From Pelagomonas calceolata (Eukaryota), in the NCBI GenBank assembly GCA_918797485.1, contig CAKKNE010000003.1, positions 5,146,001 through 5,210,000 on the forward strand: a DNA stretch of 64,000 nucleotides. The letters are read 5' to 3'. Position 1 is the first letter of the stretch, and each line of letters opens with the position of its first letter. Position numbers and translations under genes: made by a program. This document shows, piece after piece, positions 4,846 to 63,489 of this stretch. Under the pieces are notes generated by a model that ran no database searches, was not told where the DNA came from, and was given only the letters and a program-made list of their open reading frames with translations.

Positions 4846-5323
4846 ATCAGTGAAAATCGTTAAAGAATTGGTTACTGATGGATACGCGGTGATGTTGATT
4901 TCAACGGTAAATTAGCTGAAGACCCGGCTTGAGTTCCAGGAAGGGGGAGTGAGGGCAAAAACCCCTAGCACGCGTGCTGTAACGCCATAGCCCCTATCGC
5001 CGGATCTGCGCGCGCATCATCATGATTTACTCGCCTATCAGCACGCTATATCAGCCGGCATGTGCCCGGAGCTGATATTCCCCTATATCCCGTATCTTTC
5101 TGCTTATCCAAGTGGATCAAGCCCGGCGCTAAGTAGGCGCCGTAAAAACACCGGGGTGAACCTAAAGTAAGTTCACTTCACACTAACGCAGCTAGCCTGA
5201 GTACAGCGCGGCGCTACTAGCCTCTGGTACGTACTAAAACCTGAGAAGAGCTCTAGGTGTAGGTAACTATAGGATCATAGCACAATCGTAGCACAATCGC
5301 TGTATCGCGTCCAGGGGGGAAGT

Positions 5324-5532
5324 TAGAGAGAGAAACCCTCTAGCCCTTTCCTACCCTACATATGTATCTCCCACTCTCTAAATTGAGTCTACCGCAGTAT
5401 ACATTGAGGGTCTATCGACGCTACTTTGTAAACCAGTTTATAATTCAACACTCTCGTAGTGGGTTGGCGCCAGTCCTGATAGGGCAGCCAGGACCCTGCT
5501 ACTTTACATAACGCTGCGACATACTCTTGCTA
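5324..5532 (+). mobile_element. LTR-like repeat family A (TAGAGAGAG...CTTGCTA), preceded by a polypurine tract
   Basis: Similar to copies at 15132, 42304 and 56616; ccaggggggaag lies immediately 5'. Confidence 0.7.
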
Positions 5533-15131: not shown

Positions 15132-15334
15132 TAGAGAGAGAAACCTACTAGCCCTTCCTACCTTAGATATGTATCTCCCACTCTCTAATATTTGAGTCTA
15201 TACAGCGAGTGTCTTTGACGCTACGGTGTAACAACAGTTCACTATAAAACACTCTCGTAGTCAGGTTGGCCCAGCCCTCGGCTGGTGAGCTAGGACCCTG
15301 CTACTTTACATAACGCTGCGACATACTCTTGCTA
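15132..15334 (+). mobile_element. LTR-like repeat family A copy preceded by a PPT (ccagggggag)
   Basis: Near-identical to the reverse complement of 56616-56818. Confidence 0.75.
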
Positions 15335-15422
15335 GGACGCTGGTAGGATTCAAGGTGGACGTCAAGCTGGCTAAAAGTTTTTGCCTCGCATCCTCGAGGC
15401 GGCAGCTGGCGAGATATCTCTG

Positions 15423-17159: not shown

Positions 17160-18150
17160 CGCCCGTCCACGGACGCGTCGCCGCCGCTGTCGAGCGCGCT
17201 CGAACCGTCGTGCGAGGACAAAGAGGAGAAGCGGACCAAGGGGCCGTGGACGCCAGAGGAAGACGTCACGTGCGGTGTCGGTCTCCTTCTCCCTTTGTTT
17301 GTCGGGGCGGGGAGCGCACCTTGCGATGCCCGTAGCAGCTTACGCATGCCCGTCGCGCGCGCGGGCTCTAGGGGGTTTCACGGCGCTCGTGAAGACTTGT
17401 TCCGAACTTCCCACGCCCAGGCCAAGGTCGTGGAACTGGTGCGTGCTCACGGTGCCCGCAAGTGGTCCACCATCGCCTCGCAACTGCCCGGGCGCATCTC
17501 AAAGCAGTGCCGAGAGCGGTGGCACAACCACCATCTCCAAGGAGCCGTGGACGCTGGATGAGGACAAGATCATCCTATCGTCGCACGCCAAGCTCGGGAA
17601 CCGGTGGGCGGAGATCGCGAAGCTATTGCCTGGACGCACGGACAATGCGATAAAGAACCACTGGAACTCCTCAATCAAGCGCAAGTACGAGCGCTTCCTC
17701 GAGGAGGCGATGCAGGAACTCGTCGCGCCACACAACGCGGCCCGAGACGCGGCCCTGGCGGCCAAGCAGGGTCTCGAGGCGGCAGGCGTGCCGATCGGTG
17801 AGCCTCACATGGAGATGCCACTGCCAGACGACGCATACCTTGTCATCTGCCAGTCGATGCGGGCGGCGGCGCACGAGGCACGCAAGGGCGACCCACTCAA
17901 GCCGCCGCAGCCCAAAATCGTGCGCCCCTTCGCGGCCGACCTCGACGACACGCCTCGGTTCCGCCTTGTTGGCGAAAATTTGGAGAAGGCGATCTACGCC
18001 GTCTGCCAGGCACCGAAGAAGAGGAGCTACACCAAGCGGGCCGCAGGTGGCGCGCCCGCCAAGCGTAGGCCGGTGCCTCCCAAGGCAGACCCCGCCGCGC
18101 GGCCGATGCGCGTGTCGATCGTCGGGGCGTCGACGCTGACTGCGGCCGAT
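17160..18150 (+). pseudogene. Decayed inverted paralog of the adjacent MYB gene
   Basis: [12 protein letters not shown]|intron 17265-17420|[11 protein letters not shown]. An 11-nt deletion at ~17532 ([10 protein letters not shown]) shifts the frame; there is no clear start and the C-terminal region is truncated. Confidence 0.75.
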
Positions 18151-18301: not shown

Positions 18302-20589
18302 CTAGGCGTCGGCGGCGGGGCGCGCGTTCACGGGACGCTCCGCGAGGCGCGTGCGGGTCTTCTTGAACGACGGTTCCGTCGGCGCGGGCGGGCACTTCCC
18401 CTGCGGCGAGCGCGCGGCCTTGAGGACGTCGAGCGAGGCGACGGAGGAGCCGGAGGGCGGCGGCGCCGCGAAGACGTCGTCGGCGCGGACGGCGCCGTCG
18501 AAAGCGGCGTCCGGGAGCGGCTTGGTGTCCGCCGCCGTCGGGGCGCCGCGCCGCTTGAGCGCCGACGGCGTGGCGAAGGCCTCAGGCGGCAGCGCGCGCG
18601 TCGGCGTCGCGCGCCGAAGCGCGGCCGAGGACTGCGGCGGGGCGTCGGAGAGCGCGCTCTGCAACGCCGCGAGCGCGTCGTCGCCGAGGAGCGGCGACAG
18701 GCCCGGCGTCGCCACGTCGGGGCCGCCGGCGGGCGCGCGGCCGGCGACGGGCGTGTCGATGCCCGAGAGCCGCGCCGCGCGCCGCGAGGAGGCGGCGCCG
18801 CGGTCGGCAGTCGCCGCTGGGTGACCGGCGGCGTCGAAGAAGTTCCCGGGGGGCGGCGGCGGCGACCACGCGAGCCCGTCGCCGAGGTCCTCTAGGACGC
18901 CGGGGAAAGGCGGCGAGTGGACGCGGGACGCGCCGCCGCCGTGCGGGAACGGCGACGACATGGAGACGAGCGACCGCGCCGCTTCGGAACCGGTCGGCGA
19001 GACGTCGTCGCGGGCGCCGCTCGGGTCCAGGCGGACGTCGGCCAGGCCCAGGCTGAGGCCCGTGGCCTGCCGCGGCAACCGTCGCCGCGCGCGCCGACCG
19101 CGCCCCCCGGCGAGCGGGTCCGCGGCGCCCTCGTACGGGTCGACGAGCGCGTCGGCGTCGCCGAGCGACGACGCGGCGGAGCCGTAGCTCGTCCGGGGTT
19201 CCGGGCCCTCGGGCTCTAGCATCGACGCGGCAAAGATGCCGGCCGCCGCGTCCAGCTGCGTCGGCGACATCATCGACGGGTCGTCCAGGGCGTACGGCGG
19301 CGGCGAGAGCCGCGGCGACGGCGCGGCGCCACCGAGCGTCGTCGGCGCGCGGCCAGTCGCTTCGTCGCGGAACGGCGGGCCGTCGACCGTGCCCGTCGCG
19401 GCGCCGACGACGGACACGCGCGTCGGCGCGCCGACGACGGACACGCGCGTCGGCCGCGCCTGCGAGGGACGACCCTCATCCCTCACCCTAAGCCCCCGCG
19501 AACCTCGGAGCACCCCGGACGCTTCCCGCGCGGCGCGCGCGCCAGAGCTGCCTTCTGGCCCGTCGTTCGTCGCTTGGAGGACGCCCCGCCCGCGGCCCGC
19601 TTCGTGTAGCTGCGCTTCTTGGGCGCCTGGCAGACGGCGTAGACCGCGGCGTCGAGGTTGTCGCCGACGAGGCGGAACCGCGGCGTGTCGTCGAGGTCGG
19701 TCGAGAACGGCCGCACGACCTTGGCCTGCGGCGGCTTGAGCGCGTCGCCCTTCCGCGCCTCGTGCGCCGACGTCTTTAGCGACGCGCAGACGACGAGGTA
19801 CTGGTCGCTCTCGAGCGGCACCTGCGGGGCGGCGATCGACGGCGCGCACCGGCCCGCGCTCCGGACGCCGGCGGTCGCTTCGACCTGCGGCTCGCCGATC
19901 GGCACGCCCGCCGCCTCGAGCCTGCGGCGAGGAGGGGACGGCGTCGACGCGCCGTCGACGCGCGCGCCGCGGACCGTCGTTTCGGGCGCCGCGTCGGACC
20001 CGCGCTTCGCCGCCAGCGCCGCGTCCCGGGCCGCGGCGTGAAGCACGGCCAGCTCCTCCATCGCCTCCTCGAGGAACCGCTCGTACTTGCGCTTGATCGA
20101 CGAGTTCCAGTGGTTCTTTATCGCGTTGTCGGTCCGCCCCTTCAGCGACTTGGCGATCTCCGCCCATCGATTCCCCAGCCTCGCGTGCGAATGCAGAATT
20201 TCCTTGTCCTCTTTCTCCGTCCACGGGTCCTTCGAGATCGCGGGGTTCAGGTGGTTGTGCCACCGCTCCCGGCACTGCTTGGAGATGCGCCCGGGCAGTT
20301 GCTGAGCTATCGTGGACCACTTTCGGGCGCCGTGCGCGCGCACCAGTTCGATGACTTTGGCCTGGGAGCGGCGCGCGAGGGGTCGGGCGCGCGCGAGCGA
20401 TCGACGGGGGGGCCAAAAATACCGACGCTGCGAGCGGACGTCCTCTTCGGGCGTCCACGGCCCTTTCGTTCTTTTCTCGTCTGCCTCGCGCGGCCTTGCC
20501 GCCGCAGCCGTCGACGACGGCGGCGAGCCGCCGAGCCGCGGCGACGCGCGCGTCGGCGCGCGCGGGGGCGCCGGCGTCGGAATCTCCAT
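18302..20589 (-). CDS. R2R3-type MYB transcription factor; introns 20362-20439, 19922-19999, 19822-19878 and one ending ~19460
   Basis: KGPWTPEED...[27 protein letters not shown]...[26 protein letters not shown]. Intron positions are supported by alignment to the paralog. Confidence 0.92.
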
Positions 20590-25741: not shown

Positions 25742-26776
25742 TTACACCATCGCCATGTCGCGAAGCACCGCCTCGTATTCCGTCGTGCGGCGGCCGGCCC
25801 GGTCGCGGACGATGAGGGGTGCGGCGATCGCCTCGTCTCGTCGTCCCGCAGCATGGTCCAGGCGCCGCATGGTCCAGACGCCGAAGAGTGTCGGTTTCCC
25901 GGCGCGACCGACAACGGGGCGGTGCCCAACGACGACCAGCCCCGCCGCCTCGGCTGCCTTTTGGACGCGTCGCAGGTTGACGTGCAGGCCGCCCTCGCAC
26001 ACCACGAAAGTCCCAGTTGGCGCCATGACATCCACCGCCGCCTTGCAGTAGGCCTCGATTCCGCCGCGGAACTCGTAGCGCGCACCGGCGGACTGCTCAC
26101 AAGCGGGGAACGCGCCGAAATTCGTGGTGGCGCCCCCGGCCTCGTCCTGGGTAACGTCAAAGTACGGCGGCGTGCCCGTGACGAGCGTCGCGCCCCTCGC
26201 GCAGGCCGGCGTCGTGCGCAGGTCGCCGTCGAGCACGGCGCACGGCGCGCCGTTGTATGTCACCGAGCGGCGCGCCAAATTTGCCGAGTCTGCCTGCGCC
26301 TCGACGCCCAGCCCATCGTATCGTAGGCCCGCTTCCGTGCATCGCCACGCTACCATCTGAAGCACGGAGCCCACGCCACAGCCCAGGTCGACGTGGGTGA
26401 CCACCCCACCAAGACCTAAGGCGACTTGCGAGGCGACGTGCGCCGTGACGACGTCCTCGGTCGAGTAGCGATGACCTCCAACCCGCTGGAAGACGCGCCA
26501 ACTTCCACACAAACAGCAGAGCTCCTCTCCCGGCCCCGGCTCACCCACGCCCGCCGCGCGCGGTCCGCGGCGCGTCGACGCGCTCGACCGCGGTTGCGTG
26601 ACGCGGCCCGGTTCCGTGGAACGCTGCCTGCCGCGTCTCAGCGCCCCCGAGCCGCCGCACACGCGGCACAGGCCTGTGGCGCCCGCCGCCCGCTTGCGCC
26701 GACCCGCCGCCACGACGCCCGAGCCGCGGCATTTCCAGCAGGGGCCCGTCGCGCCGAAGCCCGGGAGCGGTGCCAT
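25742..26776 (-). CDS. SAM-dependent methyltransferase (TrmN6/YfiC-like) with an N-terminal CxxCxGxG zinc-binding pair
   Basis: GHRYSTED, VDLGCGVGSV, GVEAQ, GDLR, VTGTPPYF, ARYEFRG; CWKCRGSG and CRVCGGSG. Confidence 0.85.
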   Translation of the reverse strand: MAPLPGFGATGPCWKCRGSGVVAAGRRKRAAGATGLCRVCGGSGALRRGRQRSTEPGRVTQPRSSASTRRGPRAAGVGEPGPGEELCCLCGSWRVFQRVGGHRYSTEDVVTAHVASQVALGLGGVVTHVDLGCGVGSVLQMVAWRCTEAGLRYDGLGVEAQADSANLARRSVTYNGAPCAVLDGDLRTTPACARGATLVTGTPPYFDVTQDEAGGATTNFGAFPACEQSAGARYEFRGGIEAYCKAAVDVMAPTGTFVVCEGGLHVNLRRVQKAAEAAGLVVVGHRPVVGRAGKPTLFGVWTMRRLDHAAGRRDEAIAAPLIVRDRAGRRTTEYEAVLRDMAMV

Positions 26777-27103
26777 CCCTTGCAGCAAAGTGCAGGTGGC
26801 AAAAACCAGCTGCGCGATCAAGCGCTGTCACTTCGAAAACCGCGAGCTCTGTAGGCTCGGGGCGCAGCGCCCATCATGTCTTGCTTCGTAGGCACAGGGG
26901 GACGCTTGTCGCGCGAGCAGTACGCGTACGAAAGACCTGAAAAACCCGTCGGCCTGGCGCGCGCGCGCCGCGGTCCGCGGAGGCTAAGTCTACAAATAAG
27001 CAAATAATCATACATCACAAAAAAGAGTACTTTTGCCTTCATCACGCCAAAGTGGTTAAAGCCCTTGGATTTAGCCCGGCCCTAGCGCTGTGGTCCAGAG
27101 ACC

Positions 27104-28135
27104 ATGAGCCGCGAAACCGACGACGCCTTGCGGCAGGCCATCGCCGCGAGCCTGGCGGACCAGGCGTCCCAGGACGCCGACGACGACCTGCGGCAGGCGC
27201 TGGAGGCGTCGAAGCAGGAGACGCCATCGGAGCCGCCAAAGGACATCGACGCGCTGACGGCCCAGGAGCGCGACGCCTTGACGATCGACCAGCTCAACGG
27301 CATCCTCAAAGAAGTGGAGACGACGCAGCCCATGGTGGGCGAGCGGACGGGCGTCCGGGAGGCGCTCGGCGCCGAGTACGCCGACAACCCGCAGAGGGGC
27401 TTTTCCGAGGGCATCGCGAGGCTGGACGAAACGTACGCGTCGCTGCGCCGCGTCCGAAAGGACGGCAACTGCTTTTATCGGGCGTTTCTGTACCGCTACC
27501 TGGAAGAGCTGGTGCAGAGGAATTTTGACGTGCCGCGGCCCCCCACTGGCAGCGGGAGCGCTGGCGGGGGCTGCGCCGAGCTGAGGCGCATCCGAACCGT
27601 CGCGAAGGACTCGAAGGCGGCGCTGTTGAAGGTGGGCTTCGAGGAAATCGTCGTCGACTCGTTCTGGGAGACCTTCTGCGAGCTCCTGGACAATCTCCCG
27701 GAGACGTCGCCCCGAAGGCTCCACGAGCTCATGACCGAGGAGGGCAACGACGTCACTTCCGTCGTCTGGTTCCTGCGCATGCTGACGTCGGGCCGCATCA
27801 AGGCGCACGCCGACCGCTTCGCGCCGTTCATCGGCGACGACTTCGCCGACGTCGAGCGCTTCTGCCAGGTCGAGGTCGAGCCCGTGAACGTGGAGTGCGA
27901 CCAGGTCCAGATCATCGTACTGACCCGCGCGGAAATCAAAATTTTACGGCGGCGCCCGACTCGCGGACTGATTTCCGCCGCGCAGGCGCTGACCGAGGCC
28001 CTCGGCGTGGCCGTCGCCATCGAGTACCTCGACGCGTCCGGCGCGCCGTCGCGCGTCGTCTTTCCCGACGGCGGCGAGCCGTCCGTCACGCTGCTCTACC
28101 GGCCGGGACACTACGATATTCTCTACGACAGGTGA
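27104..28135 (+). CDS. Otubain-like OTU deubiquitinase (peptidase C65) with two UIM-like motifs; intron 27917-27985
   Basis: RRVRKDGNCFYRAF and LLYRPGHYDILY; DDALRQAIAASL and DDDLRQALEAS; splicing restores QII|ALTEAL. Confidence 0.93.
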   Translation: MSRETDDALRQAIAASLADQASQDADDDLRQALEASKQETPSEPPKDIDALTAQERDALTIDQLNGILKEVETTQPMVGERTGVREALGAEYADNPQRGFSEGIARLDETYASLRRVRKDGNCFYRAFLYRYLEELVQRNFDVPRPPTGSGSAGGGCAELRRIRTVAKDSKAALLKVGFEEIVVDSFWETFCELLDNLPETSPRRLHELMTEEGNDVTSVVWFLRMLTSGRIKAHADRFAPFIGDDFADVERFCQVEVEPVNVECDQVQIIVLTRAEIKILRRRPTRGLISAAQALTEALGVAVAIEYLDASGAPSRVVFPDGGEPSVTLLYRPGHYDILYDR

Positions 28136-29029
28136 GGTCTTTTTGGCTGGCTTACTTACGGGAAGTACCAAGTAAATAGTTTAGTGTAACACCGCAATTG
28201 AAATTACTGGCAGTGCAAATAGTTACACAGGCAAAAGGTTACCTGCCCTCAGTCACGGTGACTGGCAGTGCCCACAGTTTCTCTGCCGAGGGCTGGTGCC
28301 AGTGCGTGAGGACAAAAATCCGACGGAGCGTCTGTTCGGGTTTTGGACTTTTAGTACACCACTGATTTCGGGTTTTGGGGGAATCCTGTGGGCTAAAGTG
28401 CCAAGTTTCTGGTCTAAAAGTAGACTAGGCGTAGGCACGTCCCGTACGTTAGAATTGTTTGATAAGAACCATAGTGGCCTGCGAACGTCACCCGCTGCCC
28501 CGTACCGTTAACGGTACGGGGCACACAGGCCCTAGTGAGTTTTGCGCCACTAGCATTTAAGCTGTTTTACGCCGGTCGTCAGAACGCTGTTCTTCGCCGC
28601 TCGCCCTTTCTTTCCGTCCCCGTAAAAACGTTTCTCTCGCTCCCCGCGTTCCGATGAGCACCTTTTCAAGATAGTTTCGCGGCGCGGAGGCGGACGAGGC
28701 CACAGGGCGGCCGCGCCGGTTGAATCCTGTCAATCCCTGTCGAACAGGTCTCCCTGGGGTCGCCTAGGGTCGGTACTATACACGTGCAAGCGCCTACGCC
28801 GCAAGCGCCGCCGCTTCAAGCATTTTTAGTCGATTTCTCTCAGCAGCCCATGAGCACCTTTTCAAAACCATCCGAGCCCACCTTGCCGCGAAACTGCCGC
28901 CGACACTGGCGCCTACGCAGCTGGCGAGTAGCGTGTCGCGTTGCGTTATAGGGTTGGCGAGGTCCTGGCTCACCAGCCAGAGGCTGGGCCAAGCCAACTA
29001 CGAGTGTTGCATAGTAGTAAATTGGTTTA

Positions 29030-30782
29030 CCGCGCTGGGCCGGCGCTCTTAGCGTCGACCTCCCGCCATCGACGCGACGACCAGCTCTCGATGGATGGAC
29101 GGTCACGAGACGAGAGGTGTCGATGGGGCAGGCGAGGCACGGGTGTCGGATCCGCATCGGCGCACCAGCGTGCCTCCTTGTTCGGGTTGTTTCCTTGGTT
29201 CGTGCACCAAGCTTCCCGCTCCTGTCTCCTCTAAAGTTCACTTTACCAGTGCTGATGATGAGGATCTTGCACCCGCCCCTTGGTCAGCACCCAGCGCAAA
29301 TTGATTTCCGGGCCGGCCCCCTTAGCGTCGACCTCCACGCCATCGACGCGACGACTAGCTCGATGGTTTCCACACGGTCACGAGACGAGGGGTAGGTGAG
29401 GCACGGGCAGGGTGTCGGATCCGCATCGGCGCACCAGAGCGTCTCCTTGTTCGGGTTGTTTCCTTGGTTCGTGCACCAAGCCTCGCTCCTGTCTCCTCTA
29501 AAGTTCACTTTACCAGTGCTGATGATGAGGATCTTGCACCCGCCCCCTTGGTCGCAGACCTGTGCAGAAATTGGATTTCCCGGGCCGGCCCCCTTAGCGT
29601 CGACCTCCACGCCATCGACGCGACGACTAGCTCGATGGTTTCCACACGGTCACGAGACGAGAGGTGTCGATTGAGACGTGGGCACGGGTGTCGGATCCGC
29701 ATCGGCGCACTTGCCGCCTCCTTGTTCGGGTTGTTTCCTTGGTTCGTGCACCAAGCTTCCCGCTCCTGTCTCCTCTAAAGTTCACTTTACCAGTGCTGAT
29801 GATGAGGATCTTGCACCCGCCCCTTGGTCGCAGACCTGTGCAGAAATTGGATTTCCCGGGCCGGCGCCCTTAGCGTCGACCTCCACGCCATCGACGCGAC
29901 GACTAGCTCGATGGTTTCCCACGGTCACGAGACGAGGGTGTCGATTGCACGAGGCACGGTGTCGGATCCGCATCGGCGCACCAGAGCGTGCCTCCTTGTT
30001 CGGGTTGTTTCCTTGGTTCGTGCACCAAGCTCGCTCCTGTCTCCTCTAAAGTTCACTTTACCAGTGCTGATGATGAGGATCTTGCACCCGCCCCCTTGGT
30101 CGCAGACACCGTGCAGAAGTTGGATTTCCCGGGCCGGCGCCCTTAGCGCCGACCTCCACGCCATCGACGCGCCACTAGCTCGATGGTTTCCACACGGTCA
30201 CGAGACGAGAGGTGTCGATTGCACGGGCACGGTGTCGGATCCGCATCGGCGCACCAGAGCGTGCCCTTGTTCGGGTTGTTTCCTTGGTTCGTGCACCAAG
30301 CTTCCGCTCCTGTCTCCTCTAAAGTTCACTTTACCAGTGCTGATGATGAGGATCTTGCACCCGCCCCCTTGGTCGCAGACCGTGCAGAAATTGATTTCCG
30401 GGCCGGCGCCCTTAAAGCCGACCTCCACGCCATCGACGCGACGACTAGCTCGATGGTTTCCACACGGTCACGAGACGAGAGGTGTTGATTGAGACGTGGG
30501 CACGGGTGTCGGATCCGCATCGGCGCACCAGAGCGTCTCCTTGTTCGGGTTGTTTCCTTGGTTCGTGCACCAAGCCTCGCTCCTGTCTCCTCTAAAGTTC
30601 ACTTTACCAGTGCTGATGATGAGGATCTTGCACCCGCCCCCTTGGTCGCAGACCTGTGCAGAAATTGGATTTCCCGGGCCGGCGCCCTTAGCGTCGACCT
30701 CCACGCCATCGACGCGACGACTAGCTCGATGGTTTCCACACGGTCACGAGACGAGAGGTGTCGATTGAGACGTGGGCACGGG
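29030..30782 (-). repeat. Tandem array of ~6.3 units of ~276 bp (intron plus 177-nt exon)
   Basis: ggtcacgagac recurs at ~29101, 29376, 29648, 29923, 30196, 30466 and 30742. Confidence 0.92.
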
Positions 30783-33700
30783 CGCCGCGACTGGAGCGGC
30801 TTCCGGCGCAGCGGTAGGCTTCAGCGTTGGCGACGGCACGGGGACCACGCTGGGCGCGGGCGTCGGCCGCGGCGTCGGCGTCGGTGTCGGTTTGGGCGTC
30901 GGCTGCGGAACCGGCCGCGGCGTTGGACCGGGCGTCGGTCGCTGCGTCGGCATCCAACAGTCGCTATTTCCGTCCTTTTGGCCAACGCCGCACGACGTCG
31001 ACTCGCACGGGGCGACGTCAAACGCGCCGTCCAGGTTCACGTCGTCGTCCACGCACCAGCCGAGGTCCTGGTCGAAGGCATAGGCCAGACAGAACATCAA
31101 ATGCATATCTCTGACGTTTTCGACGTTCCAGGCGCTGATGTCCTGGTTAAACGAGAACGCTTCGTGGAACATCATGCCCATCTCATTGACGTTGTCGACG
31201 CTCCAGCCGCCAATATTCTGATTGAACGACGAGGCGCCCAAGAACATCCCGTACATCCTCGTTACGCCGGAGGTGTCCCACGCGCCGATGTCCTGGTCGA
31301 AGGCAGAGGCGGAGTTGAACATGGAGTTCATGCTTTTGACACCGGAGGTGTCCCACGCGCCGATGTCCTGGTCGAACGACGAGGCACTGCTGAACATGGA
31401 GTCCATGTGCATGACGCTGTGGACCGCCCAACCACCGATGTCTTGATTAAAAGACGAGGCATAGTAGAACATGGAATACATCGTCGTGACGCCAGAGGTG
31501 TCCCACGCGCCGATGTCCTGGTCGAAGGCCGAGGCCCACTTGAACATGAAGGCCATCGTAGTGACGCCGGAGGTGTCCCACGCGCCGATGTCCTGGTCGA
31601 AGGCCGAGGCACTGCTGAACATGGAATACATGGATCTGACGCCCGAGGTGTCCCATGCGCTGATGTCCTGGTCGAAGGCCGAGGCACTGCTGAACATCCC
31701 GCTCATGCTCGCGACGTTGTGGACCGCCCAACCACTGATGTCCTGGTTAAACGCTGAGGCACCGCTGAACATCCAGCTCATGCTCGTTACGCTTTGGACT
31801 GCCCAATCACCGAGGTCCTGGTCGAAGGCCGAGGCATAGTAGAACATGTAGTCCATCGTAGTGACGCCGGAGGTGTCCCACGCGCCGATGTCCTGGTCGA
31901 AGGCCGAGGCACTGCTGAACATGGAATACATGGATCTGACGCCCGAGGTGTCCCATGCGCTGATGTCCTGGTCGAAGGCCGAGGCATAGTAGAACATGAA
32001 GGCCATCGTAGTGACGCCGGAGGTGTCCCACGCGCCGATGTCCTGGTCGAAGGCAGAGGCGCGGTCGAACATGGAATACATGGATCTGACGCCCGAGGTG
32101 TCCCACGCACCGATGTCTTGATTAAAAGACGAGGCGTCGCTGAACATGAAGTCCATCGTTGTGACGCCAGAGGTGTCCCACTCACTGATGTCCTCGTTGA
32201 AGGACGCAGCGGCCGAGTTGCATCCTCTAGAAGAGTAGTAAGACGAGCCGCAAAACAAATACGACATGTCCGTCAACCCTGAGGTCTCCCACGTCGAAAT
32301 ATGGCCGTACGTCGCCTCGGCGGCCGTCGCGTTTGCGAGCCACGCGGCGACTGCCGTTCTGATGTTGAAGCGGTCCATGGCGTAGCCTGTCTTGCTGGGC
32401 GCGGGCGTCGTCGGCGTCGATGTCGGTTGCGGCGTCGGGCGCTTGCTGGGCGCGGGCGTCGGCCGCGGCGTCGGCGTCGACGTCGGTTGCGGCGTCGGGC
32501 GCTTGCTGGGCGCGGGCGTCGGCCGCGGCGTCGGCGTCAACGTCGGTTGCGGCGTCGGGCTTGAAGTGGGATTCGGCGTTGGGCGCGCAGTCGGCGCGCA
32601 GGCGTCGCCCTGCAGGACGCCGCACGACGTCGACGCGCACGGGGTTATGTAGAACGCGTTGTCCAGGTCCACGCCGTCGTCCAGGCACCAACCGAGGTCC
32701 TGGTCGAAGGCCGAGGCATAGTAGAACATGTAGTACATCCTTGTGACGCCCGAGGTGTCCCACGCGCCGATGTCCTGGTTAAAGGCCGAGGCATAGTAGA
32801 ACATGAAGGCCATCGTAGTGACGCCGGAGGTGTCCCACGCGCCGATGTCCTGGTCGAAGGCCGAGGCGCGGTTGAACATGGAATACATGGATCTGACGCC
32901 CGAGGTGTCCCATGCGCTGATGTCCTGGTCGAAGGCCGAGGCGTAGCTGAACATGAACTCCATCGTCGTGACGCCCGAGGTGTCCCACGCGCCGAGGTCC
33001 TCATTGAATGATGATTTTTGTGAGAACAACGATTTCATGTCCGTCACGCCCCCAGTCTCCCACGTCGAGATGTGCCCGTAGGTCGCCTCGGCTGCCGTCG
33101 CGTTGTCGAACCACGCATTGATGGCCCATCTAATTTTCCAGTTGACCATGACGTTGCCCGAGGGCGGGAATTCACAGTCGCCCCACTTCACGCCGCAATA
33201 CGTCGACTCGCACGGGGTGTTAAAGAACATGTCCAGCATTTCCACGCCGTCGTCCACGCACCAGCCGAGGTCCTGGTCGAAGGCCGAGGCGTAGTAGAAC
33301 ATCTGGTACATCGACGTGACGCTGGAGGTGTCCCACGCGCCGATGTCCTGGTCGAAGGCCGAGGCGTAGCTGAACATGGAATACATGGATCTGACGCCAG
33401 AGGTGTCCCATGCGCCGATGTCCTGGTCGAAGGCCGAGGCGTAGCTGAACATGAATTCCATGCTCGTTACGCCCGAGGTGTCCCATGCGCTGATGTCCTC
33501 GTTAAAGGACGCCGCGGCCGAGTTGTAGTAGTCGCACCACGAGTTCGCGCAAAACAACCACGACATGTCCGTCACCCCGCCAGTCGCCCACGTCGAGATG
33601 TGGCCGTACGCCGCCTCGGCGGCCGTCGCGTCCGTGAGCCACGCGGTGACGGCGGTTCGAATGCTACTGTCACCCATCGAGCCACCGCACCGTAGTAAAG

Positions 33701-35704: not shown

Positions 35705-35795
35705 TTAGGTTGAGGTTAGGATTCGGTCCGAGTAAGGGTTAGGGTTAGGATGAGACTAGGGTTAGGGTTAGGGTTGGGCGAGAGTCGGGTTAGAG
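35705..35795 (+). repeat. Degenerate interstitial telomere-like (TTAGGG)n tract
   Basis: agggttagggttagga and tagggttagggttagggttggg. Confidence 0.7.
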
Positions 35796-36277
35796 CGGGT
35801 CCGAAACGGTCCTAGTGTCGGCGGCAGTTTCGCGGCAAGGTGGGCTCGGATGGTTTTGAAAAGGTGCTCATCGGAACGCGGGGAGCGAGAGAAACGCTTT
35901 TACAGGGACGGAAAGGACGAGCGGCGAAGAACAGCGTTCTGACAAGCGGCGAAAAACAGCTTAAATGCTAGTGGCGCAAAACTCACTAGGGCCTGTGTGA
36001 CCCGTACCGTTAACGGTACGGGTCACCGCAGTTCATTTATTTCACTCAGGCCCGGGCTAGTAAATAGAAGATCCCATGATTTATTTATAATCTCCGAGTC
36101 GGTGTCACTGGCATGTGATAATCACTGGCATGATTACTTGGCCGGGGCCTGTTTAACCTCACCCCGAACCCATGTACACTGAGTGGTACGAGCCTCATAG
36201 CAACAGGACCGCCTTGCTAGTGTCTTACATGCGCTAGCGCGCGTCGAGGGCCAACATTCGCCCGTGAGACTGCCAAA

Positions 36278-37720
36278 ATGCGCCGCCGCCTGGTGTGCGC
36301 GTGCATCTGGTTGTCGCGCCTCGCCGCGGCCTGGCGGAGTGGCGCGGTGGACACGTCGCGGTGGGAGTTCTACGCGCGGCAGCCAGTCCTCCGCGGCGCG
36401 CGCCTCGGCGTCGGCGCGTGCCGCGCGGCCGCCGCGGAGTGGCGCGCGCGGCGGCTCGCGCGGCGCGCAAAGGGCGACGCCGCGGCGCGCGTCCGCCGCC
36501 GCGCGGCGCGGCGCGTCGCCGACCTGCTCGTGGAGCTCGGCCCGACGTACGTCAAGCTCGGCCAGATCGCGTCGTGCCGGCGGGAACTCGTGGACACGGA
36601 GTGGGCGCCGCCGCTCCAGCGGCTCCAGGACCAGGTGCCGGCGTTCCCGGGCGGCGAGGCGGAGCTGCGGCGGCGCTTGGGAAGGCGGTTCGAAGAACGA
36701 TTCGAGGCGGTCGACGGGGCGCCCGTCGCGGCGGCGAGCCTCGGGCAGGTGCACCTCGCGACGCTCCGCGACGGGAGGCGCGTCGCCGTGAAGGTCCAGC
36801 GCCCGAACCTGAAGGCGATCTACGACAAGGACGTGGCGCTGCTCCGTACGATTTTCAAAGCGCTCGACCGCTTCAAGGTCTCCGTCGGCGTCGACCAGGC
36901 CTGGGGCGCGATCTTCGACGACGCCGCGGATCTGCTCTACCGCGAAATCGACTACCGCTGCGAGGCCGCGCACGCGCGCGAGTTCGCCGAGAACTTCCGG
37001 GACGCGCCGTGGGTGACGACGCCCGAAATCTTCGACGACCTCAGCACGGAGCACGTGCTCACGATGGCGTACGTGCCCGGCGTCTCGCTCAAGGACGTCG
37101 CCGCCATCGAGGCGGACCCGTCGCTCGACGCCAAGTCGCTCGCCCGGAACCTGGCGAGGTGCTACCTGCTCCAGTTCTGCAGGCACGGCTTCTTCAACAC
37201 GGACCCGCACGCGGGCAACCTCGCCGCGGACGCGGCGATCCCGAAGGGCCGGCTCATCGTCTACGACTTCGGGCAGGCCGCGCGGCTCGACGAAAACGAG
37301 CGCGCCGGCGCGTTGATGCTGCTCGAGGCGCTCCTCGACGAGGACGCGGAGCTGTGCGTCGACGCCTTCTCCACGATGGGCGTGCTCAAGGAGGGCTACG
37401 ACCGAGAGGCCATCGTCGCGACCGTCGCCGACAACTTCAGAGCCGGCCGCGTCGCGACGGGCAAGGGGGCGGCGCGGCGGGGGGCGACCGCCGCCGCCGG
37501 GCCGCCCCCTGCGGCGGACGGCGCCGCGGCCGATTTTCGGCTGCCCGCGACGCTCGCGTTCGTGAGCCGCGCCCTGTCGCAGATGCAGGGCGTCGGCGAG
37601 GCCCTCGACCCGGCCTTTGAGTTCGTCGGCGCGGTCGCGCCGCACGTGCCCGAGGCCAAGGGCGGCGCGAAGTACGCCGAGGACCGGCTCCGGCGGGCGT
37701 TCGGTCTGGCCGCTCGGTAG
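36278..37720 (+). CDS. ABC1/UbiB (ABC1K) atypical kinase
   Basis: LGPTYVKLGQ, LQDQVP, AAASLGQVH, VAVKVQRP, EIDY, GFFNTDPHAGN, YDFG. Confidence 0.95.
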   Translation: MRRRLVCACIWLSRLAAAWRSGAVDTSRWEFYARQPVLRGARLGVGACRAAAAEWRARRLARRAKGDAAARVRRRAARRVADLLVELGPTYVKLGQIASCRRELVDTEWAPPLQRLQDQVPAFPGGEAELRRRLGRRFEERFEAVDGAPVAAASLGQVHLATLRDGRRVAVKVQRPNLKAIYDKDVALLRTIFKALDRFKVSVGVDQAWGAIFDDAADLLYREIDYRCEAAHAREFAENFRDAPWVTTPEIFDDLSTEHVLTMAYVPGVSLKDVAAIEADPSLDAKSLARNLARCYLLQFCRHGFFNTDPHAGNLAADAAIPKGRLIVYDFGQAARLDENERAGALMLLEALLDEDAELCVDAFSTMGVLKEGYDREAIVATVADNFRAGRVATGKGAARRGATAAAGPPPAADGAAADFRLPATLAFVSRALSQMQGVGEALDPAFEFVGAVAPHVPEAKGGAKYAEDRLRRAFGLAAR

Positions 37721-42079: not shown

Positions 42080-42303
42080 GGCCAAAACGCGTAGCTGTAG
42101 GGATTTTAACTGCGTAGCGTCCACAGCGTATTAGCTATAGAGCTACCCCCTGGCCTTGCTAGTGCCTTACACGCCGCTAGCCTAAAGGAGAGATGTTCTG
42201 TCTTTTCCTTTATTTCTAACCAAGACTTCGGAAGATCCGAACCAGACTTCGCTGCCCACGCTGATACGGTACCGTGGTACCTACGGTACCGTACCGTAGG
42301 TAC

Positions 42304-42800
42304 TAGAGAGAGAGAAACCTACTACTAGTACTACTAGTAGCCCTTCCTACCCTAGATTTGTATCTCCCACTCTCTAAATTTGGAGTCTATACAGCGAGTG
42401 TCTTTGACGCTACGGTGTAACAACAATTTACTATAAAACACTCTCGTAGTTAGGTTGGCCCAGCCTGAGCCCTCGGCTGCAATGGAAATACACGTCTAGT
42501 AGGATCCCAAGGTTCAACTGAGACGTATCCAAGCACAACCCGTACTTGTATTACCCGCCTAGGCTACTTCCCATCCTAGGGTACTCCGATATCCCCTTAG
42601 TAGGGGGAAGTCGCCTCTCACTCCTAACTATTATCATCCTGAGTCACCTTAAATTGACGGACGTAATTCCCCGTCACAAACCCCATCAAACATGGGAGAA
42701 ACTATTTCGTTAGACGACTACACTACGCTGCCGGGGAAGTCCGGAGCTACACACTCTATTTCCCTATGCATCGCATCGGCTGGTGAGCTAGGAACCCTGA
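42304..42800 (+). mobile_element. LTR-like family A copy interrupted by a solo LTR
   Basis: Family A sequence breaks at ccctcggc and resumes as tggtgagctagga after 42780. Confidence 0.8.
42478..42775. mobile_element. Solo LTR (298 bp)
   Basis: TGCAATG...CATCGCA termini with a 5-bp TSD TCGGC (42473-42477 and 42776-42780); the empty site is visible in the 15132 copy. Confidence 0.88.
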
Positions 42801-48192: not shown

Positions 48193-49220
48193 TCGTCCTT
48201 GTGGCTGCGAGAGTGTCACGGCTGCCCCATGGTAAATTAGGTCATTATGGCACGGTACCTACTGCGGTACGGTACCGTATTCACTAGGCCTACTCTATCC
48301 GGGTATTTAACCAAGATAAGTGAGACTAGGATAGTGAAGCTAAGATAAAAATTTGGGAGATTTATAAGTGGAAAAGAGGCCGTTGCCACAACGGGCACCA
48401 ACCCCATCAACGCCACGATCAGCCTTACATAGGTTCGGGACAGCCCTTGGGTCTCTTATTAAAGCTCCTTCTGCAAACAGAGGGCTGTTGACCCCTCTCA
48501 TCACGGGCGCCGCGGGATTGCAACGATCCACCAATTGGATTCAAAGGTCGAACAAGAAGTTCCGGGGAAAACCCCACCTTTAGGGGAATTACCATAAGCC
48601 CCTTTGGCAGTGCCTGAGCTAAATTGGTAGGACAATTTAACTCGTCAACAAATCATACAGATTCGCAACAGGTCGAACAGGACGTACATGCTAGGGAACT
48701 AATCCCAGCTTAGGAATATAAATTCCAGCTCCATAACTGCCAAAGGCTGCTGGGGTTAATACCCGGAGCATCATAGACGTAAATACAAGGATACGTGGCC
48801 ATATCATAGCAGGTACCTACGGTACCGTAGGTATGGTACTAGAGAGAGAAACCTACTAGCCCTTCCTACCCTAGATATTTCAGCGATATTAGCTTCGGTA
48901 TGTGCTTGTGTCTAATGAGCTTGGTGCAGCAAGTGCACAATGCAGCTGTTGTAGCTAGGTCTTCAGCGATATTATGCATCCGAGTCCCGCGCCGCGGCGG
49001 TCGCCGAGGGGCAGTATTCAATCTGTTTTTCTTATGATAAGGCCACTCCCCTACGCCCCAAGGGCCACTCCGGCCACATGTGAAATTCTTGCTAACGGAA
49101 GTAGACATCTGGCGCTAGGCTGGCTAGTCTAGGCGGTTACTTACCTACGGTACCGTACAAATCGGAGGGCCTGAAAAAAATTATTAAAAAAAAAAGTACC
49201 AGCACGAACAACAACGAGAG

Positions 49221-50276: not shown

Positions 50277-51184
50277 CAGAATTGGAATAAAGGAGATTAA
50301 GAGGGAGAAGGAAGTATCCTAAGATACAGGCCACTAGTAGCCTCTGATATCTACTAGAACCTGAGAGGAGCTCTAGATAAGGTAACTACAGTATCATAGC
50401 ACACTGCCGATACTCTTTTGGATAATTTATTTGCCCGGCGTTATAAGTTGCCCCTCTGTACAGTGCATTCCGGGAGCCGCGCGGATATGTCCTTCGGCCG
50501 CTACGTTTAAACAGTAGGTCTCGGCGACCAACTATGGTGAATTCTGAATTTTGGGGATCATTTATTTATACACCTTTCCTTGAAGACACCTCCCCCATGC
50601 CGAGCGCGTGTGGGGGCGCGGGAACGTGGAATAAATTTAATTATTTAATATTTGCATATTAGACTCGCTAGCGAGGGCGAAGCTTCCGATGCTAGTGGTC
50701 CGGGGGGGGCGAACGCAGCCCCAGTGCAGCCATTCCGAGATGCATCTGAAAGTAGATCCAGCTCCAGCAAAAAACGCACACAGCCGAACGACTGCAAACA
50801 GGGCGCCCGATGACCCACTGGGTATGTGACTTCGAGGAGAGACGACTAATATGGATCATCGAAAGCAGTGAAGCTGCCCCAGCGCCGCAATACCAGAAGG
50901 TCTTTTCGCTAGGGTACCATGGGCTCAATCGTCATGGGGGGACCCCCGAAGCTCAAAACCGTCGTGGTACCTCGCCATAAGTCCGCGTGGGGCGCCCCAC
51001 GAATAACCTACTAGCATTCCTTAGATTCCTTGTTGGGTATACGTTTATGGTGAGTCGACCCCTATGATACTGTAGCCACCTTTATCTAGAGCTCCTCTCA
51101 GGTCCTAGTAGATATCAGAGGCTAGTGGCCTGTATCTTAGGATACTTCCTTCTCCCTCTTAATCTCTCCTTTATTCCAACTCTG
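50277..51184. repeat. ~123-bp inverted repeat pair (50277-50399 / 51062-51184) around a 660-bp spacer
   Basis: ttggaataaaggagattaagagggagaaggaagtatcctaagatacaggccactag...tatcatag is mirrored at 51062-51184; a related sequence lies at ~5215-5285. Confidence 0.85.
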
Positions 51185-56439: not shown

Positions 56440-56615
56440 CTTCAAGCAGCAGGATCGTAACGATCTCCACTAACGGCCCGGCCCGCCCGGGCGGGCTTCG
56501 ATGATGGGGAACTAGAAGCCGGGGATAACCTCATACCTTCAGGGGATTGCCAAAGACACGTCCAAAGACCCGTTTAGACGCACGAGCTTGTCACGGTATA
56601 AATACAAGGGGATAC

Positions 56616-56818
56616 TAGCAAGAGTATGTCGCAGCGTTATGTAAAGTAGCAGGGTGTTAGCTAACCAGCCGAGGGCTGGCTAGACCTGACTACGAGAGTG
56701 TTTTATAGTGAACTGTTGTTACACCGTAGTGCTTTTGACACTCGATGTATAGACTCAAATATTAGAGAGTGAGGGATACATATCTAGGGTAGGAAGGGCT
56801 AGTAGGTTTCTCTCTCTA
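56616..56818 (-). mobile_element. Solo LTR-like family A copy, 203 bp, with 5-bp TSD GATAC
   Basis: gatac|tagcaagag...ctctctcta|gatac. Confidence 0.85.
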
Positions 56819-56949
56819 GATACGTTACCGTAGGTACCGTAGGTATCATATCAGGTACCAGCTTGTACTACTGCGGTAAAGCTCATACGAATCGGAGTGG
56901 AAATCCGGCTCGGGGCTGCTAGCGCTGGTAGAGGTCGCCCTTTTTTTAG

Positions 56950-58408: not shown

Positions 58409-59616
58409 TCAGCTGGCGATACTCACCTTGGGTACGGTGCGGGCGGCCTCGGAGCCGAGACCGTCCCAGGCAAACCCCGGTACGTAATCGACGCGCAGGA
58501 GGCTCGGATCCCAGACGGCACGGAGCGAGGCGCAAAACGAGCCCGGCGGTGTCGCGCGGCCGGCGGCTGCGGCGACGCCGGAAAAGAAGGTTCGCTCGTC
58601 GCGCGCCGAGATGTCGCTGCCCCAGGATTGGATCGACGTGTGCGTGTTGATCTCACCGCGGGTCACGAGGCCCTCGAAGGGCGTCCCGTTGTACGTGAAG
58701 CGACAGGAGCCGTGAGACTGGAGCTCCTTGGAGACCTGCCACTGGTCCGTCTGCAGCGTGATGAGCGTCTCGTCGCAGGCGATGCCAAGGATGCGCGCCG
58801 CCGCCGCGCGCGGTATGATGAGACCCGCGTCGTTTCTGCCGAGGCGATAAGACGCGTACTTCCGCGCTGCGTGCTCGGGCCGCTCGAGCCGGAGCACGAG
58901 CGCCTCGAGCGCCCGGCCAAAATCGTCGCCGATTTCTACCTGTGTAGTAATCTAAATTTCACGGCGCGTTGTTTCCTCCACGCCATCGACGCGACACCAG
59001 CACGGCCGCGTCGTCGCCGAGAAATGACTTAGAGTGAAGAATGATCGGGTGCACCCGACACACCGGTTGATTTCCACACAGTCCGCGAACGTCGTCGTTG
59101 AGCAGCATGCCGTAGTCGGCGTCGGCCACCAGGACTTGGACCAGGAACCGAAGGTACGTGAGGAACCACGCGATCTGGCCGTAGCTCAGCCGCCACTCGC
59201 ACCGGAGGCCGAGCGCGTCGTAGTGCCGGACCATGTCCGCTAGCGGGCGAGCCTTTGACGTCGCGTTCAGCACGCGCAGATAGGGGTGCGCGCGGCGCTG
59301 CGCCTGGACCCAGGCGTTGCGCTCGACGTGCGATCGGAGCGTCGCGACGGACCACAGCATGCGCCCGCGCCGCCGACACGCGTGATCGCCTCGAAGTCGG
59401 CCTCGTCAAAGTCCAGGCGTCGCGCCCACTCGGTCTGGAGCGCCGGCGTCGTGCGGTAGCTGGCGCCGCCCATGCTCTTGGCGACCGCGAGCCCGCATTC
59501 GACGATGCGACTCTCCGCAAAATGTCCATCAACCAAGTCGCCTTCGTGGACCCCGGGATCGGCGGCGCCGCGCCCACCGACGCGACGACGACCAGCGCGC
59601 ACGACAGCCGCAGCAT
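58409..59616 (-). CDS. Glycosyltransferase family 25-like protein; introner-like intron 58940-59090; 5' exons unresolved
   Basis: LSYGQIAWFLTY...MLLNDD|VEIGDDF...GLIIPRAAAARIL...TDQW. The 5' part needs two frame changes I could not explain. Confidence 0.55.
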
Positions 59617-61470: not shown

Positions 61471-63489
61471 TCACTCCCACGCGCCATCGTCGTCGTTGTT
61501 TGTGTCCGCTTCCGAAGGCTCCGAATCCTGCTCGTCGTCGTCGTCGTCGCCGTCGGTCGTCGCCCCCCAACTTGCCTCGTCAACGGCTCGTTCTTCCTTC
61601 AGATTTTCCGCGACAATATGGGCGGCCTCCGCTTCATTTTCAGCCTCCTCGGTCTCGGCGCCAGCGGCGCGTTCCGCCTCGGTGCGCTCTGCCTCAGCCT
61701 TGGCGACGCGGCGTTCCTCGGCCGCTCTTCGCTCTGCCTCGGCGCGTTCAGCTTCCAATCGTTCAGCTTCGAGACGGGTTGCCTCCTCGGTGGCGAGTCG
61801 TTCGGTCTCCAAACGCTTGGTTTCGTTGGCAACGTGCCGTGCGGCGGCTTCGCGAGCTTTGGCCTCGGCGAGCCGCTTCGCCCCTTCTTTCGCCGCAGCT
61901 ACGTGTTCCGCTTCGACGCGCTTGGCTTCCAGATGCTCCGTTTCGAGTCTCTTCGCCTCCCGCCGGTCTGCTTCTAAACGCCCAGCCTCAAGCCGGGCCC
62001 CTTCGGCAGCGGCGCGCTCGGCCTGCTCGGCAGCGTTGCGCTCGACCTCTGCCCGCTCGGCAGCGATGCGGGCCAATTTCTCTGCCTCTTTTGCAGCGAT
62101 AGCATTGGACTTGGCTAGTTCTGTGGCGGCGATATCCTCTGACCGCGACGGTTTTGCGTTAAACGGCGGAATCTCGGCGATGGCCTCTGACCGCGACGGC
62201 TTTGCGTTAAACGGAGGAATCTCGGCGATGGCATCCGGTCGCGACGCATTAAACGGAGGAATCTCGGCGATGGCCTCTGATCGCGACGGCTTTGCATTAA
62301 ACGGCGGAATCTCGGCGATGGCCTCTGATCGCGACGGCTTTGCGTTAAACGGAGGAATCTCGGCGATGGCCTCTGATCGCGATGGCTTTGCATTAAACGG
62401 AGGAATCTCGGCAATAGCCCTCGGTCGCAACGCATTAAACGGAGGAATCTCGGCGACGGCCTCTGACCGCGACGGCTTTGCATTAAACGGTGGCGTTGCG
62501 GCGATGGCCTCCGGTCGCGACGCATTAAACGGCGGAATCTCGGCGACGGCCTCCGGTTGCACAGACACCGCTGGGCTCGCCGTCTGGCCGCCTTGGGGCC
62601 GGAGGTCCTCGGCCACAGCCACGCGCGTCGGCCGCCGACTGCCAGTCGCCTCGTCTTGATCGTCGCGTCCGATGCCGGCGCGCGCTCGTCGAAACTCTGC
62701 GTCGAGTCGCCGCTTCTTGGCCTCCGCCGCGCGCGTGCGTTTCGCGCGGACACGCTCGTCTTTTTTCTTCTTCTTGGCGTCTCGGAGCGAGACAAGACGC
62801 GCGGCTTCGCGCGCAGCGTCGCCCGCCAAGGCACAGTCGCTTCGCTGCGCGTTGTCGTCGCGCCGCCGCCGAGCCGCAGAGACAGGTCGAGCGGGCATGC
62901 CTCTGCCGCCATACGCCGCCTCGACGCGAGCGTCCCGTGCGCGAGGCGGCAACTTCGCCTGCGCGCGCCGCCCCGACGAAGCGGCGCCTGACGCCGGTGG
63001 TGACGCGCTGCCGCAGGCGAACCGGAGCAGGCGTGCCGCCTCGGCGTACGCGCGCTCGACGCGAGCGGTCTCGGCGGCGACGTCCGCGTCACGGAGCGTG
63101 CCTTCGAGTCCCACGCGCGCGGTCGCTTGCCGACGGAGCCGTCGCTCGACCGCCGCGACCCGGCCGTGCGCGCCGGCCAGCGCCTCGACGGCGACGCGCC
63201 GATTTTCTGCGGAGCCCCCCATTTGAGCTGGGGGGGCAGCGGCGGAGGTGCGCGCGATCGCGCCGCGGCGGCACCTGTTCAGATCGTTCACGACGAGCTC
63301 GAGTTCCCGCGTGCGCAGCTCGAGGTTCGCCTCGAAGGCGCGTTTCACCTTGCGTAGACGCGCGTGCTCGCGCCGCTGCTCCTCGAGCGCGTCGCGCGCC
63401 TCCGCGAGGCGCAGTCGGAGTTCGTCCGCAGCCTCGGCGGCCGACCTGGCCGGGGCCCAGCAGGCCCGCGCCCGGAATGGAGGCGCCAT
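61471..63489 (-). CDS. Coiled-coil/low-complexity protein with nine tandem EAIAEIPPFNA(KP)SRS repeats
   Basis: 672-aa ATG-started ORF; N-terminal heptad-like region, 48/42-bp repeats at ~62135-62555, and an E/A/R-rich helical tail. Confidence 0.6.
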   Translation of the reverse strand: MAPPFRARACWAPARSAAEAADELRLRLAEARDALEEQRREHARLRKVKRAFEANLELRTRELELVVNDLNRCRRGAIARTSAAAPPAQMGGSAENRRVAVEALAGAHGRVAAVERRLRRQATARVGLEGTLRDADVAAETARVERAYAEAARLLRFACGSASPPASGAASSGRRAQAKLPPRARDARVEAAYGGRGMPARPVSAARRRRDDNAQRSDCALAGDAAREAARLVSLRDAKKKKKDERVRAKRTRAAEAKKRRLDAEFRRARAGIGRDDQDEATGSRRPTRVAVAEDLRPQGGQTASPAVSVQPEAVAEIPPFNASRPEAIAATPPFNAKPSRSEAVAEIPPFNALRPRAIAEIPPFNAKPSRSEAIAEIPPFNAKPSRSEAIAEIPPFNAKPSRSEAIAEIPPFNASRPDAIAEIPPFNAKPSRSEAIAEIPPFNAKPSRSEDIAATELAKSNAIAAKEAEKLARIAAERAEVERNAAEQAERAAAEGARLEAGRLEADRREAKRLETEHLEAKRVEAEHVAAAKEGAKRLAEAKAREAAARHVANETKRLETERLATEEATRLEAERLEAERAEAERRAAEERRVAKAEAERTEAERAAGAETEEAENEAEAAHIVAENLKEERAVDEASWGATTDGDDDDDEQDSEPSEADTNNDDDGAWE

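Follow-up and report, generated by a model that had tools for sequence, protein, structure and literature searches.

The classical idea of modularisation holds that intron gain is followed by tandem duplication and yields a shufflable module. Introners, reportedly treated also by Huff et al. in 2016, are mostly described as neutral or costly insertions, and the usefulness of new introns for proteins is an open question. According to the available text of PMC9481584 on P. calceolata and, for the general model, of 10.1101/2022.06.06.494994 and PMC11282704, pelagophyte introners carry terminal inverted repeats (TIRs), a GT or GC donor and an AG acceptor, and the intron of the array described here is built in the same way. 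It differs from the introners in the available part of PMC9481584 in that the array copy has 90 nt, its target site duplication (TSD) is degenerate, and it has been multiplied in tandem with an exon rather than dispersed. The filters of Gozashti et al., in the available description, discard introns whose similarity extends into exons, so introner/exon arrays would be missed.

Exon/intron arrays have been described in several other systems, which are compared here in the portions of each source that were available. The LRR arrays of 90-bp exons in Tetrahymena (PMC6564038) likewise have units of one length and phase and a variable number of exons, and unequal crossing-over has been proposed for them; they are in phase 2, encode LRRs, occur in thousands of genes and have a LINE-like element beside the units, whereas the present array is in phase 0, encodes a non-LRR Cys module, occurs at few loci and contains a DNA-transposon-derived intron. 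The ROCO LRR and NB-ARC TPR arrays of Ectocarpus (PMC3341825) resemble it in belonging to a stramenopile and in having one repeat per exon of the same length in variable number, but they encode intracellular receptors, and their exons are divergent and some of them inverted; the authors stated that what they observed gives no support to a part played by transposable elements. The bacterial Periscope proteins (PMC8201768) are surface proteins with tandem, near-identical folded domains whose number varies by intragenic recombination; they have a C-terminal wall anchor and no introns, whereas no anchor was seen here, and, with one module folded in the present work, the comparison does not extend to the rod shape of the array. 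DUF285 (PF03382) itself has been described in pelagophytes and their giant virus (PMC10720644; 10.1101/2024.10.30.620910; 10.64898/2026.09.29.755320), with 75 DUF285 genes in Pelagomonas calceolata (10.64898/2026.09.29.755320). The family is abundant and its function is given as unknown, low light, nitrate limitation and host–virus exchange having been linked to it, and the available text of these three sources mentions neither an exon array nor a Cys-module tail for DUF285 proteins. No report of an introner repeated together with its exon was found in the open-access literature, subscription papers being outside the scope, and a term search of the available part of PMC12130899 returned nothing on it. 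Exon/intron arrays and P. calceolata introners are both known; judged by the open-access literature, the introner as the repeated intron of an array is what is new.

The stretch analysed (64,000 nt of P. calceolata DNA, hereafter the window; GC ≈ 0.63, eukaryotic) contains a DUF285 open reading frame (ORF) that continues into such an array (Table 1). TRF placed the tandem repeat at 29037–30782, with a period of 273 and 6.4 copies, and on the minus strand the units start at 30752, 30476, 30206, 29933, 29658, 29386 and 29111. Unit 1 has 276 nt, divided into a 99-nt phase-0 GT-AG intron and an exon of 177 nt whose two ends are both in phase 0. An earlier note on this DNA had counted about six repeats of the pair; six full units of 270–276 nt are written in the window, and what follows as the seventh is a partial intron of 75 nt. 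The frame of the DUF285 ORF stays open until a stop at 30744–30746, the leader of intron 1 holding an in-frame stop when the intron is retained, and the order that had been read from the letters (DUF285 ORF, 99-nt phase-0 intron hiding the stop, 177-nt exon for 59 residues) agrees with both the translation and the splice reads. The repeat begins 30 nt within the upstream exon, the last bases of which match those of the module exon; at the sole mismatch (30486), the upstream letter is the one read in DNA contig sets X1 and X3 and in more than 90% of RNA reads. Consecutive exons of the same length lie between introns of the same phase and are spliced in series, as in a symmetric exon/intron array. 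The upstream ORF scored 1,024 bits against Pfam DUF285 in 11 stretches (gathering cut-off 25), and its Kyte-Doolittle 19-mer maximum was 1.66 at residue 9 and 0.95 elsewhere.

Table 1 Features of the DUF285 gene, its exon/intron array and the flanking repeats (positions in the window)
Feature	Position	Strand	Basis or remarks
DUF285 ORF, 1,518 codons	30753..35306	-	Pfam and hydropathy; signal-peptide-like hydrophobic N-terminus, Pro/Thr linkers
Pro/Thr linker end, 30 nt, first repeated bases of the array	30753..30782	-	As written, agrees with the last bases of exon 1 at 29/30 positions
Intron 1, 99 nt, phase 0	30654..30752	-	9-nt TSD-derived leader (GT donor) and 90-nt introner with TIRs, ending in AG acceptor
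Exon 1, 177 nt, 59-aa module	30477..30653	-	≈ 44-aa 4-Cys core and Pro/Thr linker
Units 2–6, intron and exon each	29112..30476	-	Indels best read as assembly errors; a few intron substitutions real
Partial seventh intron, without acceptor, as written	29037..29111	-	29005–29100 without DNA contig coverage
3' end in RNA: partial intron joined 29309 to 28867, transcripts ending near 28829	28829..29309	-	RNA reads
Second family member, 142-nt element and 9-nt GT leader, putative intron	58940..59090	-	Sequence comparison
Left arm of long inverted repeat	28493..28907 (28493–28669 and 28847–28907)	.	High-copy family, terminal TTAA-centred palindrome
Right arm of that inverted repeat, lying upstream of the DUF285 gene	35814..36028	.	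Sequence comparison

Splicing was followed in the raw reads of two poly(A) RNA runs from a single sample (X21 and X22; ≈ 6% of each run was sampled) against a reference of one unit plus 480 nt of the upstream ORF, with the DNA contig sets X1 and X3 compared alongside; the marine metatranscriptome rows X15–X20 (share < 0.2) were excluded from the RNA evidence. Run X21 yielded 7,239 exon-to-exon reads and 1,259 reads that skip the 99 nt of the intron (together ≈ 8,500), and run X22 yielded 3,417 and 631 (together ≈ 4,050), while neither joint was listed in X1 or X3. At least one of the intron-skipping reads in each run has 75 letters on its shorter side and therefore extends past 30782 into upstream-specific sequence. 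Nearly all array reads have the sense of minus-strand RNA, and the plus-strand control gene shows the opposite. These junction reads bear out the proposal that the transposon-family intron is spliced, and in both runs they contradict transcripts that would end at the 30744 stop without splicing at 30752/30654. Exon-into-intron reads numbered 1,537 (X21) and 594 (X22); at 30722, 1,568 of 2,110 X21 reads carry the letter seen in the window only in the last, partial intron, so most of them are probably 3' ends. The acceptor end is covered by ≈ 406 X21 reads, and retention is ≈ 4.6%. Exon skipping is invisible to short reads because the exons are near-identical. Circular RNA was considered for the reads that go back 177 nt and set aside: such reads are indistinguishable from tandem splicing, circles fail to explain the deep piece at the 3' end, and the libraries are poly(A).

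The family to which the intron belongs was characterised by a scan of metagenome contigs with the 26-nt introner core, which gave at least 120 loci; 67 of those listed, with both ends and distinct right flanks, were kept, and 53 that were truncated, duplicated or had an end missing were set aside. The TIR of the family, CTGTGTGGAAA/TTTCCACACAG, has 11 nt, and its TSD of 8 nt is, among these listed matches, exact at 27/67 loci and has at most one mismatch at 47/67; none of the 67 loci gave an exact TSD match at the remaining lengths between 3 and 12 nt. The left TSD copy starts with GT or GC at 45 of the 67. Lengths range from 73 to 210 nt with a cluster at 200–204 (67 loci among the matches listed), and the commonest full length, ≈ 203 nt, gives ≈ 211 nt with the 8-nt TSD, which accords with the intron peak near 210 bp reported for P. 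calceolata together with 956 putative introners (PMC9481584, available text); the TIR letters of the family were not found in the text files, as available, of the supplement to that paper. The array intron departs from the family TIR at 1 of 11 positions on the left and 2 of 11 on the right, and it is a 90-nt shortened derivative preceded by a 9-nt leader that, read by eye, differs from the first 8 nt of the next exon by a single-base insertion and one substitution. The acceptor lies within the element and the donor comes from the TSD, as has been described in the available text of 10.1101/2022.06.06.494994. A TIR and core in common with the intron at 58940–59090 had been noticed before, and the comparison returned a common 31-nt core (90%) in addition to the TIR. 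Moreover, the TIR/TSD family and the splicing agree with the earlier view of a transposon-made intron amplified with its exon into symmetric phase-0 units. In the otubain gene, the segment 27925–27985 looks like a short fragment of this introner family and ends in CAG.

We consider it probable that an introner entered a pelagophyte DUF285 gene where a Pro/Thr linker meets the 4-Cys domain, and that unequal crossing-over between linkers multiplied the intron together with the exon. We infer the following order of events. An introner would have landed at the boundary between the linker and the 4-Cys domain; a crossover between the flanking Pro/Thr linkers, with the linker end in Table 1 as the likely substrate, would have duplicated intron, domain and linker; later unequal exchange would have expanded and homogenised the units; and the old 3' end would have been lost when sequence was deleted or inserted at the adjacent repeat arm, the broken last intron being kept as stop and 3' UTR. 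Because one phase-0 intron would have lain within the duplicated stretch of 177 coding nt, every copy would be a symmetric exon, and because the units are near-identical, their number could change by further unequal exchange. Linker recombination accounts for the array better than transposition does, since the repeat extends 30 nt back into the upstream exon and all units have the same, already degenerate TSD, and separate transposition of each intron is unlikely, since the copies have a common deletion, the same degenerate TSD and repeated exons. The suggestion of the earlier note that intron and exon were amplified together is kept in this reading, with the mechanism adjusted from transposition to recombination in the linkers.

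Positions C2, C8, W28, C29, W42 and C43 are invariant across three aligned cores of the module. AlphaFold2 (8 sequences) predicted for the single module a small alpha/beta core of the order strand-strand-helix-strand (three strands, one helix), with a mean pLDDT of 76.7 and a pTM of 0.53, and disulfide bonding is suggested by the Cys pattern and the likely secreted context. The HMM and structure search advised for the 59-aa 4-Cys module returned no named family or fold: there was no match under E 0.18 in Pfam (the module is neither LRR nor TPR), none under E 0.49 among PDB sequences, none in the Atlas, and none for the fold (best Foldseek E 1.1 in PDB and 0.094 among viral structures; best VIA-align Z 3.4). 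These blank searches do not amount to a new fold. Among JGI metagenome contigs none of 127 pattern matches was confirmed as the module, and a search of viral contigs did not find it either.

True relatives of the module are few and mostly unnamed proteins, and it is conserved at the protein level in unrelated contexts. The 64 proteins from the first homologue search (untrimmed alignment), mostly Pro/Thr-repeat, were dropped as low-complexity matches, and so were two of the five candidate homologues (P0002 and P0004), which are short repeat matches without the Cys pattern. P0001 is the public gene model CAH0372759.1, named at NCBI as a 'partial' protein of P. calceolata; it matches the window frame in the array at 111/119 residues and reads through introns. 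The linker of P0073 and P0080 runs unbroken into the module and introner-like residues appear, in the protein letters, only later, so both look genomic and empty at the site; P0075, P0076, P0078 and P0082, which are gene-caller products, are also continuous from linker to module. P0072 and P0077 have introner-like residues in their protein letters before the module only, and P0003 (53% identical) has them before the module and ends PL-VS-stop like the array. In these predicted protein sequences the relatives seem to present three states at the same site, namely no intron, one intron and introns on both sides. P0073 has a signal-like start and another Cys-rich domain, and P0072 has further Cys/Trp domains downstream of the module; both are unnamed Cys/Trp-rich proteins with further small domains ending TLWC or TIWC beside it, and proteins of this type possibly form a wider family of secreted modules.

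The ratio of unit to unique-flank depth in DNA contigs, a rough proxy in which loci are pooled, was 10.9–11.4 in X3, 20.5–23.3 in X1 and 9.6–18 in the shallow X11, and the entry segment (30753–30870) has 2.3 times the unique depth in both X1 and X3, so that part of the reads may come from a second locus. There seem to be more than six units per genome (≈ 11 or 22), in one collapsed array or at two or more loci. For the copy-number change to which the units had been thought suited, the difference between ≈ 11 (X3, X11) and ≈ 21–23 (X1) is suggestive only. At the RNA level, the depth of the array relative to upstream bins was 111–474x in X21 and 98–347x in X22, far above what 6, 11 or 22 copies would give, and the 3' end region reached ≈ 500–1,570 against 30–130 upstream. 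The control gene, an expressed otubain (Peptidase C65) gene with UIM motifs at 27086–28135, showed RNA that increased 1.5–1.8-fold with each kb in the 3' direction. For one transcript class to fit, ≈ 24–79 units and a 3' bias of 1.15–1.9-fold per kb are needed; the bias of the control gene leads to ≈ 27–44 units for a single transcript, above every DNA run examined, none of the runs compared being known to come from the RNA sample.

The 3' end of the array as written in the window differs from the form in RNA. The joint between 29309 and 28867, carried by 499 reads, has the non-canonical ends CC..TC and is not a splice; P0001 has the same junction, which was not listed in the X1, X3 or X11 DNA contigs. 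A transcript end near 28829 was represented by 106 molecules and a loose end at 30675 by 849 (X21) and 281 (X22) reads, and the 61–137 RNA reads on 29010–29034 show several differences from the window. The last intron is without an acceptor in either form, and in both its first codons give a stop.

An RNA excess of ≈ 100–470-fold over the upstream bins, with the deep 3' end region, could also arise if most array RNA were initiated within the array or transcribed from a different, truncated locus borne by the inverted-repeat element, with a short poly-module transcript or protein separate from DUF285. Such a source, which we regard as rather improbable, would be in line with the RNA 3' junction that is unlike the window and unlisted in X1, X3 and X11, with the 2.3x depth of the entry segment, and with the RNA exon variants at 30501 and 30605, which occur in no window unit; yet no well-supported loose end with other upstream sequence was found at the exon start, where the consensus is the exon end with an agreement of 0.88 and 0.95 (the check covers the well-supported ends, 561 and 476 weaker ones lying outside it), no start site was listed in the unit at a threshold of a fifth of local depth, and the numbers are matched by a longer array with ordinary 3' bias.

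With the array read through from the DUF285 ORF, as the linker-recombination reading has it, the predicted product would comprise a signal peptide, DUF285 solenoids, n modules and no membrane anchor, with a computed length of ≈ 1,870 residues for 6 units and 2,820 for 22. No hydrophobic 19-mer above 0.95 was found outside the N-terminus, with 0.87 across the exon joints, and hence no C-terminal anchor. The product is likely to be secreted or surface-associated, its signal being read from hydropathy, with a multivalent tail of variable length, and a binding or coating role outside the cell is our best guess. It is conceivable, if doubtful, that the array serves as a dial of length or valency (≈ 11, 22 and perhaps 30–40 units by culture, tunable by exon skipping), seeded by an introner, passing through three stages and belonging to a DUF285 protein in an inverted-repeat element.

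The whole DUF285 gene lies between the two inverted arms, which match over 177 nt at 93% and 61 nt at 98%. The sequences outside them have only a weak likeness of 8–9 nt with no clear TSD, and the arms may be two independent insertions of a common repeat, as opposed to capture in one Pack-type TIR element. On its outer side the arm repeat terminates in a 28-nt palindrome with TTAA at its centre; at 28496 six X3 contigs continue into different flanks, which marks where the arm family ends, and degenerate telomere-like TTAGGG repeats (35726–35790) lie directly inside the right arm, upstream of the gene. Elsewhere in the window there are another long inverted repeat (17416–18065 with 19571–20366, ≈ 80% identity, around 1.5 kb), an inverted pair at 50277–50399 and 51062–51184, and a dispersed repeat of ≈ 200 nt (5305–5532, 15132–15335, 42275–42479, 48814–48878 and 56615–56848), which often adjoins palindromic repeats of the GTACCGTAGGTAC type and has left a damaged piece at 28961–29015. 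A second tandem array (62127–62553) has a period of 48, ≈ 9 copies and higher-order periods of 90, 138 and 186. A methyltransferase-like ORF (25742–26827; weak Pfam match) and an ABC1 atypical kinase (36221–37720) were also recorded.

The array might instead be a satellite-like amplification, of recent date and neutral to selection, at the broken terminus of a gene copy carried by a transposon, and spliced only because every unit has retained functional splice sites. Its intron and exon are alike near-identical (one 243-nt contig at 11x unique depth in X3), the original 3' end of the gene is lost in the repeat arm, a search of JGI metagenome contigs did not find the exon, and the neighbourhood is rich in repeats, as would be expected of such an origin. 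We nevertheless hold it to be improbable in view of the conservation of the module at the protein level in unrelated contexts, the same both-sided arrangement that P0003 suggests at 53% identity, and the open frame in the reads with high expression.

As written, units 2–6 differ from unit 1 by 5–13 substitutions and 4–9 indel events each, recurring at the same places, all five have indels, and units 2, 3 and 6 are without an intact acceptor. With unit 1 as the reference, no indel reached 3% of reads in the two RNA runs or occurred in the X1 and X3 contigs; with unit 6 as the reference, 12,921 of 13,051 reads differ at 29169, 3,678 of 3,714 are without the base at 29129, and ≈ 99% of exon reads differ towards unit 1, with X1, X3 and X11 contigs agreeing where they cover it. 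The check is direct for unit 6 and indirect for units 2–5. The distal indels, for which decay and assembly error had both been offered in the earlier note, are best read as assembly errors, because the reads and DNA contigs are without them, and the pattern points to uncorrected long-read consensus error. Largely refuted already, and very improbable, is the opposite reading of the distal units as cassettes in decay or in alternative use, with frameshifts and broken acceptors of their own, which takes the lost acceptors and the indels throughout units 2–6 at face value but is opposed by their absence from RNA reads and X1/X3 contigs, by the shift of unit 6 towards unit 1 and by the recurrence of the differences at the same few places in independent units. 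A few differences are real: the substitutions at 30684 (as in units 5 and 6) and 30722 are present in RNA and X1 and not in X3, and the RNA exon variants comprise a silent one at 30501 (28%; 3,681/13,036 reads) and Lys17Glu at 30605 (34%; 4,890/14,303 reads), whose absence from X1 and X3 proves nothing because contigs drop variants. In the DUF285 ORF, the letters at 30820 and 30835 differ from all DNA contigs compared and from ≈ 90% of RNA reads, and they are probable assembly errors in the 2.3-copy entry segment.

The assembly and the public model CAH0372759.1 thus misrepresent a highly transcribed locus, the array of which delimits a small 4-Cys domain without a name. Every boundary of this repeated, extracellular-type domain is marked by an intron of a transposon family, and relatives seem to keep earlier stages, which makes the route from intron gain through duplication to a shufflable module testable in one culturable and abundant ocean alga. 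The array probably catches a jumping intron in the course of making a protein domain into a building block that can be repeated.
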